This document shows, one piece after another, positions 20,725-21,531 of a stretch of DNA of 48,553 bases. Source of the stretch: Vezdaea acicularis (lineage: Eukaryota); assembly GCA_026025075.1 (NCBI GenBank), contig JAPEUI010000119.1, positions 1-48,553 of the forward strand, read 5' to 3'. Positions within the stretch are counted from its first letter, which is position 1. Every line of letters begins with the position of its first letter. Below the pieces are notes generated by a model that searched no databases, was not told where the DNA came from, and saw only the letters and a list, made by a program, of their open reading frames with translations. The position numbers and the translations under genes are program-made.

Positions 20725-21531
20725 ATGATGTTGTCCCTGACATCCCTCGTTCCCCTCTTGCTCTTCATCAGCCATGCGTCGGCAGCTCCGGACCTGCAAA
20801 AGCGGGCCTGCATTGCCGACTCGACCCAATCGTGTTTCTCCTCGAGTTCCTCCGCTGCCAGCGCCTTCTGCAGTTATTTCCTCACGAGTATGGTCTTTGT
20901 GGACATCTACCCCACAACGTGCCGTGGCCCTTGTCTTCCCTTGTAGCCATCTGTACGCTGAACTTCCCTAGGACTCAAGTTACGACGACAACGACCACCA
21001 CATACACCACCACTTACACAAACGGTGTCTACGGAAAGCGCGAAGCCGTCGTCCTCCCCGTGCTGGGGAAACGCCAGAGCCCGCCACCACCGGCCTGTCT
21101 GGCAAGTCCGTACAACCCGTATTCCGTATCTAGCGCATGTACGTGTGGCGTCAGCGTTACTTCCGGCCGGCCTGTAACGGCGATTTGGTCGCATTCCACA
21201 TCTACTAGCGTTCGTAGCTTGCAAAATCTTTCCCTTTGCAACAAGTGTTCGATATTAACCTTAAACGCAGACGTCCACCACAGTCTCAACGATCTCGCGA
21301 ACCACCTCCTGCGTGACAAGCGGCCAACAGGTCCCATCTCGGGCCTTTCCGTATTGTTGTCCAGGCCTGAAACCAACAGACGGCTTCGGAGGTGATCCCA
21401 ATGGTAGCCCGTACTATGCTTGTTGGCCTACGCCGCCGCCTTGCGTACCAAAGGGCCGAAGGTGTGCTGGAGGTACCTGCTGCCCTGGTTCGTATTGTGA
21501 ACCTTCGGGAGGATCGTTTTATTGCCTTTAA
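20725..21531 (+). CDS. Small secreted Cys/Thr-rich protein (about 230 aa) with Kex2-type KR sites and a C-terminal knottin-like module
   Basis: Preferred exons 20725-20918, 20972-21209, 21271-21531 (693 nt, in frame). Hydrophobic signal peptide ending ASA-A, LQKR, Thr-rich linkers, SSACTC motif, C-terminal CVPKGRRCAGGTCCPGSYCEPSGGSFYCL. ATATAAG lies about 85 nt upstream. Confidence 0.78.

Follow-up and report, generated by a model that had tools for sequence, protein, structure and literature searches.

The stretch of DNA analysed here (the window) consists of 48,553 nucleotides of Vezdaea acicularis (contig JAPEUI010000119.1, assembly GCA_026025075.1) and is one contig of an intron-bearing genome of about 19 Mb. 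It holds a gene of three exons on the + strand, with its ATG at 20725 and its stop codon at 21529-21531, that is predicted to encode a secreted Cys-rich protein. In this protein, the two halves of a small Cys domain (the 'knob') are separated by a Thr/Val-rich insertion ('arm 1') followed by sites of the Kex2 type; after the second half come another Thr-rich stretch ('arm 2') and two knottin-like modules, the 'payload' (Table 1). What is new is the match in length between the arm before the cut and the arm after the second half.

Gene layout and intron models

Table 1. Features of the three-exon gene and of its neighbours, in positions of the window
Feature	Position	Strand	Basis
Signal peptide, 20 residues	20725..20784	+	Hydrophobic leader in the translation, judged by eye
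Short pro-peptide ending LQKR, Kex2-type site with Leu at P4; KR 20800-20805	20785..20805	+	Translation; rules from PMC8528282
N half of Cys domain; Cys 20809, 20833 (optional pair), 20869 (FC motif)	20806..20886	+	Invariant columns of the alignment
Arm 1, Thr/Val-rich insertion, 37 residues (model B) or 24 residues (model A), intron 1 inside	20872..21035	+	
Intron 1, favoured model B, phase 2	20919..20971	+	Predicted; alternatives 20888-20979, 20888-20946
KR 21036-21041, 9-residue spacer 21042-21068, KR 21069-21074	21036..21074	+	Translation
C half of Cys domain: N-terminal Gln, Cys 21096 (optional pair), CxC 21138 and 21144	21075..21146	+	Alignment, 13.7 bits
Arm 2, Thr/Ser/Val-rich, 34 residues, intron 2 inside	21147..21309	+	
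Intron 2, phase 0, GTTCGT donor, TTAAC branch, CAG acceptor	21210..21270	+	Predicted, clear
Knottin-like module 1, 4 Cys, with Cys II and V, a disulfide pair of the knot, missing	21310..21423	+	Toxin_7 match below cut-off
Knottin-like module 2, C-x6-C-x4-CC-x4-C-x8-C, and stop codon	21442..21531	+	Direct reading
Spt6 gene	15224-19371	+	Pfam scan
EamA/CSG2-like transporter	22366-23888	-	Pfam scan
Sterol-glucosyltransferase-like gene	27930-29744	-	Pfam scan

An original prediction for this locus had named a leader, LQKR, a segment with three Cys, a GKR-spacer-GKR arrangement, an N-terminal Gln and SSACTC, and every one of these elements was found where it had been placed, in the sequence and in the translation. 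The first internal site reads Y-G-KR (21030-21041), the second G-KR (21066-21074), and the C half ends SSACTC (21129-21146). The layout had not mentioned that an intron separates the first three Cys from the Thr run, and the gene extends beyond the point at which it ended (21209), through intron 2 into the knottin-like exon.

Three models of intron 1 were compared. Model B gives a protein of 230 residues with 3+3 Cys, a family score of 49.4 bits and arms of 37 and 34 residues; the corresponding values are 217 residues, 3+3 Cys, 40.9 bits and arms of 24 and 34 for model A (20888-20979), and 228 residues, 45.0 bits and arms of 35 and 34 for model C (20888-20946). All seven paralogues with a predicted intron in arm 1 have it in phase 2, a phase that only B would give in the window gene. 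Model B is therefore the favoured prediction: it scores best against the family, its arms match, its number of Cys is even and its intron phase is that of the paralogues; as its donor (GTGCCG) is weak, models A and C keep some likelihood. That the window copy is mis-modelled, uncleaved or decaying is the least probable of the alternatives considered: the weak donor of model B, the AAG acceptor of model A and a divergent N half would fit this, but the core Cys, both Kex2 sites, the 37/34 arms and the family intron phases have all been kept, and AAG acceptors occur in 3 of the 10 listed paralogue introns.

Among the paralogues, the predicted introns lie in phase 2 in arm 1 and mostly in phase 0 in arm 2. 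The long arm 1 of L037 holds three phase-2 introns, which suggests that it grew by symmetric exon duplication.

The neighbouring genes form no cluster: the gene sits alone between the Spt6 and EamA-type transporter genes. An open frame of 429 codons at 25273-26562 (+) had no Pfam match below E 0.1. A prokaryote-style protein call (P0001) covers the gene itself but misses its signal peptide and runs straight through the two introns.

A Cys-rich domain in compact and split forms

A pattern scan of the V. acicularis genome gave 96 matches, compared to 54 with the reversed pattern; 48 of the 96 were inspected, and the other 48 showed no motif in translation, from a reading of the listing. The genome was found to contain 12 family members, the window gene included. 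Nine of them are split, and three are compact (L008 and L035 with 2+2 Cys, L041 with 3+3 Cys), having a short linker between the Cys clusters and no dibasic site. A search with a profile covering both halves found 502 clusters (50% identity) at E<=0.001 among 1.84 billion cluster representatives, the best 150 of which were analysed. A split-form profile gave 66 matches among 7999 scored candidates, 62 of them new. The named matches all come from filamentous ascomycetes, for example Purpureocillium, Arthrobotrys, Xylographa, Mollisia, Botrytis, Beauveria and Exophiala. The majority of relatives have the compact, uncut form, and the linker measures 20 to 35 residues in 250 of the 310 parsed domains. 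No N half could be parsed for 23 out of a total of 333 C-half motifs, and the C-half motif itself was missing from 3 out of 212 proteins. Four rows were excluded as mis-parsed from the Cys and dibasic counts (P0103, P0115, P0158, P0165), and P0126 and P0084 additionally from the arm tests.

No Pfam family was found over the Cys domain in 149 of the best 150 proteins and all 62 new ones; NCBIfam gave no match for seven queries, and sequence searches of PDB gave none. The surmise that the locus carries a recurrent, uncharacterised fungal secreted motif was thus borne out, with 502 clusters and no Pfam model.

The window gene was scored against a profile built from 55 split database proteins, with no window rows in it. 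The spliced models reached 41 to 49 bits, compared to less than 5 for 1000 shuffles of each, and the C half alone 13.7 bits, a score attained by none of 1000 shuffles. The N half is strong in the full-length context, as judged from the profile score of the spliced models, and weak alone. The window gene has C-x2-D ... FC in the N half and P ... SSAC[ST]C in the C half. Single-sequence homologue searches with exons 1 and 2 returned only P0001, which is the same DNA, or nothing, and a metagenome scan found no orthologue among 593 pattern matches. We conclude that the window gene is a divergent member of a large family that has no Pfam model.

An AlphaFold2 model of the compact L041, built on 62 sequences, is a three-helix domain (predicted local distance difference test, pLDDT, 78.5; predicted template modelling score 0.60) with helices at 8-15, 17-29 and 49-60, and the insertion site falls in the loop 30-43. 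An earlier model from 12 sequences was discarded (pLDDT 54.7). Since the compact relatives join the two Cys segments, and given the predicted three-helix fold, the two Cys clusters of the window protein are, on sequence and model, halves of one helical domain of about 55 residues. They had originally been taken for two separate segments; that view is not supported, the domain being found intact as well, uncut and with 3+3 Cys, in L041. Foldseek matched the L041 model to nothing in PDB or BFVD. The best hit of a VIA fold search of 48,161 chains had a Z of 3.3, a root mean square deviation of 2.7 and 48 aligned, which is no proof of a new fold, and ESM Atlas gave one ascomycete cluster at 0.79-0.80, a lead only. 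We also noted that the FC motif of the N half resembles the SSAC motif of the C half, each with a Thr-rich arm after it, and that mixed alignments superposed the two; the Cys domain may stem from an ancient internal duplication.

Four Cys are invariant in the family. An optional fifth and sixth, one per half, are both present in 190 of 306 domains, both missing in 103 and mismatched in 13, so that the pair is concordant in 293 of 306 (184 of 196 when one domain per protein is counted). Within the genome itself, the pair was found in both halves in seven members and in neither in five, with no mismatch (12/12). Its two positions also shift jointly: +8/-11 in the window protein, +8/-12 in P0182 and +8/-10 in P0185, compared to the usual +5/-6 to -9. 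Because this shifted position is common to the three, Cys 20833 probably bonds Cys 21096. The two Cys of a CxC motif cannot readily bond each other, and those of the knob therefore probably pair with the two core Cys of the N half. Since one Cys per half is gained or lost together, the disulfides probably cross the cut, and all two or three of them would span the loop, also in the 2+2 members. An inter-chain disulfide, which had been proposed from odd Cys counts on both sides, is thus probable by covariation. The odd counts are no general basis for it: 103 of the 306 parsed domains are 2+2, and there the argument fails.

Two small clades have one unpaired knob Cys, in the C or the N half (P0169, P0177, P0183, P0184, P0198, P0213; P0124, P0153, P0161). 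These could form inter-molecular bonds, even with each other's type.

KR or RR is present in 46 of 53 long insertions, a count biased by the KR columns of the collecting profile, compared to 1 of 53 control stretches of equal length taken from behind the domain. Among the short linkers, 4 of 253 have such a site, and three of these four are short split forms of 37 to 39 residues. In V. acicularis, all nine split members have a dibasic site and none of the three compact ones does. The last KR/RR lies 16 to 35 residues before SSAC in the split members (18 in the window protein, by direct count). A proprotein-convertase P domain is present in the genome. The first and third sites of the window protein (LQKR and the last KR) have Leu at P4, a preference of Kex2 sites described in PMC8528282. 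Cleavage by Kex2 into two chains is therefore likely, as far as sequence can tell.

The expected conservation of the dibasic sites is seen in the split members, in the biased set given above. The KR-spacer-KR arrangement is not the rule: two separated sites with a short spacer, as in the window protein, occur in 12 of 53 insertions, a single site being the norm, and the excised spacer of nine residues is therefore incidental. The EA dipeptide, read as a Ste13-type signal, is located on the piece that Kex2 would release for disposal. Amidation at G-KR was rejected, as fungi are not known to have the amidating enzyme.

Arms of matched length

Arm 1 was defined as the insertion before the cut, and arm 2 as the stretch after the second half. 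Their lengths are correlated (Spearman 0.75, n = 48) and agree within 10 residues in 36 of 48 proteins, compared to a permutation mean of 15 and a maximum of 27. On a tree made from the knob only, there are 24 independent pairs, and all 10 that differ by at least 5 residues change the same way (sign-flip P = 0.0006); among 14 dereplicated members, rho was 0.80. Arm 1 length showed no correlation with the control lengths, those of leader, payload and spacer. Within the genome, the arms, 19 to 103 residues long across paralogues, match within 12 residues in seven of nine members (L025 being measured to the first payload Cys). The Thr run had been noticed in the original prediction, and the length-matched arms had been missed.

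Composition and layout were also considered. The arms of split members contain 33% Thr and 12 to 14% Val, compared to 22% Thr, 15% Ser and 12% Pro after compact domains. With both arms numbered outward from the knob, a parallel proline register gave 43 matches at offset +2, compared to 22.7 when shuffled (0/500); the antiparallel register gave 28 compared to 21.4 (11/500). In P0162, each arm carries a single Cys, at +20 in one and +15 in the other, counted from the knob. P0115 and P0165 have a PAN-like payload on the distal tip of arm 1, and their arm 2 ends bare (51 vs 46 residues); L025 has the same layout, with a payload ending arm 1 and a bare arm 2 of matching length. This is difficult to account for unless the two arms run next to each other, their distal ends pointing away from the knob. 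Only a few residues separate the distal end of arm 1 from the C half, and a cut is therefore needed for such outward, side-by-side arms.

We thus propose, and give slightly better than even chances, that the knob folds and is cross-linked, that Kex2 opens the loop, and that the arms zip into a parallel two-chain stalk holding the payload. The signal peptide would be removed and the knob would fold in the endoplasmic reticulum with disulfides between its halves, as suggested by the Cys covariation, the compact relatives and the unlikely self-bond of CxC. In the Golgi, Kex2 would cut LQKR and both GKR sites, dropping the 9-residue spacer, and Kex1 would trim the basic ends; site conservation and known Kex2 chemistry point to this step. 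The freed arm 1 would lie along arm 2, both running outward from the knob, to form a parallel stalk of beta type, for which length matching, composition and payload position argue. The tip would present a variable binding module, here the two knottin-like modules, at or near the cell wall, a function to which the partner domains point. For the family, we see an even chance that Kex2 repeatedly opens the disulfide knob and that the arms form a rod of about 20 to 100 residues with interchangeable payloads on either chain, be they PAN/apple, CBM-like or knottin modules or enzymes. In the boldest form, chains could pair between precursors before the cut and paralogues could mix payloads. The earlier reading of a two-chain, disulfide-linked product is mostly right and partly supported, on different grounds.

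Several points weigh against this proposal. The 46/53 count is inflated, the split-form profile that gathered the set having contained KR columns, and the sets gathered without it are small (9/9 split members in the genome, 6/7 in the best-150 set). Seven of the 53 long insertions have no KR/RR; four of these have a single Arg, one has KK, one is apparently mis-spliced and one has no basic site. Cys pairing is broken in 13 of 306 domains. The N half of the window protein is divergent and scores 4.3 bits alone, which 23 of 896 reported shuffles reach. Under intron model A, the arms would be mismatched (24/34), and model C would give the first chain an extra, unpaired Cys and an odd total (17). 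The ends of the arms were assigned heuristically, the match is poor in two paralogues (L038, 53/24; L043, 75/57), and the parallel proline register falls to 8 compared to 6.0 (44/500) on dereplication. Long parallel ribbons of two free strands are uncommon, and the arms could be kept apart by O-mannosylation. A two-chain complex prediction for the homologue P0152, run without use of its alignment, scored 0.13 and speaks neither for nor against the proposal.

Some of these points would also suit a product that is two-chain and disulfide-linked but whose arms are disordered, O-mannosylated spacers that never pair, Kex2 serving only to relieve the loop. In secreted fungal proteins, linkers rich in Ser and Thr are usually extended and O-glycosylated, the proline register weakens on dereplication, and the arms of the window protein are rich in Thr and Ser with few Val or Ile. 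We nevertheless hold this to be unlikely, if worth serious attention: it leaves unexplained the near 1:1 length matching across independent pairs, the payload-free arm 2 of matching length, and a Thr/Val shift that is seen in split members only.

The same geometry, with equal parallel arms and 16 to 35 residues from cut to SSAC, could be reached with no looped intermediate if the C half of one precursor completed the N half of another in the endoplasmic reticulum, the arms pairing before cleavage. A closed dimer or chain would then be resolved by Kex2 into two-chain units, each with chains of two different precursors, the uncut product being a disulfide-linked polymer, and payloads could be mixed among paralogues. 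However, the compact members show that the halves fold in cis, which is kinetically favoured, and we regard such an exchange as quite improbable. Very improbable, in our estimate, is that cleavage triggers the arms, as two pseudo-repeats, to stack in register with those of other molecules and form cross-beta fibres or a sheath at the surface. The equal-length arms rich in Thr, Val and Ile would suit this, as would halves alike enough to misalign on each other, and amyloid-like fibrils form from Kex2-released Rep1 peptides (PMC8528282); arm lengths from 19 to 103 among paralogues, prolines inside the arms and bulky domains at both ends speak against it. The parallel two-chain stalk remains our preferred reading.

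Payloads and comparison with known systems

Module 1 matched Pfam Toxin_7 with E 3.4e-5 and 24.4 bits, the cut-off being 27. Module 2 has the six-Cys spacing of the inhibitor cystine knot consensus, and that module 1 has lost Cys II and V together would fit a I-IV, II-V, III-VI knot. The payload differs from free peptides of this kind in being tethered to the stalk, as well as in the missing disulfide pair and the sub-threshold match of module 1. No dibasic site was found between arm 2 and the knottin-like modules; an RR at 21457-21462 lies within module 2, between its first two Cys, and is probably shielded by the fold.

Partner domains in the family include GH128, GH16 with LysM, GH28, a pectate-lyase-like fold, multicopper oxidase, PAN/apple, CBM_4_9-like, PLA2G12, DUF7908 and DUF7029; most relatives carry PAN, CBM-like or hydrolase partners, and knottin-like Cys patterns were found by regular expression in 11 of 217 proteins. 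As had been predicted, C-terminal payloads vary among homologues. The idea of an N-terminal carrier covers only part of the family, in which compact copies are also internal, C-terminal or arrayed (up to 23 in one protein) and some payloads lie inside the insertion. From the fusions to wall-active enzymes and the tandem arrays, the knob would by analogy resemble a carbohydrate- or wall-binding module; its role is the least certain part of the model. A glycosylphosphatidylinositol anchor was rejected for the set, a hydrophobic tail being present in 1 of 217 proteins, where it is the end of an arm.

Three further layouts were noted. P0143 has an apparently complete compact knob inside the insertion of a split knob, after the dibasic site. 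In P0175 and P0181, a split module is fused to both a knottin-like tail and a domain resembling PLA2G12. Downstream of a compact paralogue (L008:2054-2498), there is a tandem repeat unit whose frame shifts from copy to copy.

In the yeast killer preprotoxins K1 and K28 (delta-alpha-gamma-beta), disulfides form before the Kex2 cut and an internal piece is removed, leaving a linked heterodimer (PMC13211469, PMC12691639). Disulfide formation before the cut is proposed here too, a likeness in processing logic only, read from the sequence. K1 and K28, however, have different domains in alpha and beta and a large gamma piece (about 85 to 100 residues), whereas the window gene encodes one split small domain with common uncut relatives, a spacer of nine residues or none, and matched arms. 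No killer-toxin-type Pfam match was found in scans of the window and of the family proteins; likeness to some killer-toxin family outside the fold-search listings may still exist. The comparison with insulin and killer preprotoxins made at the outset holds for the processing logic, and no further tie was found. We hold it to be highly improbable that the gene encodes a killer-toxin-like preprotoxin or a disposable carrier releasing free knottin toxins. The order signal-KR-chain-KR-spacer-KR-chain, the weak Toxin_7 match and the spider-toxin-like knottins predicted in other fungi (PMC12099005) would suit it; yet the chains are halves of one domain that is uncut elsewhere, the removed piece has nine residues and no gamma domain, arm 2 and the knottins are joined with no dibasic site between them, and most partners in the family are PAN, CBM-like or hydrolase.

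In Candida albicans Ywp1, two multibasic sites 8 residues apart are both cut, and the N-terminal fragment remains firmly attached to the core (PMC6258133). The window protein likewise has two neighbouring sites, and its N-terminal chain is proposed to be retained. Ywp1 differs in being anchored to the wall and in having a propeptide with its own internal disulfide, and matched arms are not described in the accessible text; no sequence link was noticed, no direct comparison having been made. In the Saccharomyces Pir protein Hsp150/Pir2, Kex2 yields two associated subunits that contribute to one folded domain (PMC10483737), a division over two subunits like the one we propose. Pir association is non-covalent, however, with a predicted beta-trefoil and glucan-linking repeats, whereas the knob here would be helical and Cys-linked. 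No Pir family match was found in Pfam scans of the three exons and the family proteins. Among K2PP effectors and Kex2-processed repeat proteins, a disordered N-terminal pro-domain is removed or many peptides are released (PMC8528282). The window gene shares with K2PP a small, Cys-rich, secreted fungal product with predicted Kex2-type maturation. It differs in having only seven residues ahead of the first KR and, upstream of the internal sites, one half of a folded domain; the main cut would lie inside a disulfide-closed loop, which sets it apart from the repeat proteins too. The window gene is outside the tested families, lacking features that mark killer toxins, Pir and K2PP proteins.

A distant parallel to the proposed stalk is that of streptococcal antigen I/II, in which two length-matched segments pair and carry a binding domain at the tip. 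It differs in being bacterial, in pairing an alpha-helix with polyproline II in antiparallel fashion, and in needing no cleavage. No description of the domain or the arms was found in searches of an open-access library, subscription papers, figures and supplements being outside this scope; a secretome-wide structure survey could hold the family as an unnamed cluster.

Two-chain proteins processed by Kex2 are known, and the finding would be categorically new if the stalk were confirmed. The matched arms are its surprising and testable part. When secreted proteins of fungi contain stretches rich in Ser and Thr, these are normally set aside as glycosylated spacers without order, and here two such stretches co-evolve in length across a protease site. 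The knob itself is found in at least 502 clusters (50% identity), with glucanases, oxidases, LysM and PAN domains among its fusion partners and with as many as 23 copies in tandem; as it is common and has no Pfam model, naming it would annotate many hypothetical proteins. If the arms do pair, they would represent a new design of cell-surface stalk, and Kex2 would act as a structural trigger, beyond the removal of pro-peptides.
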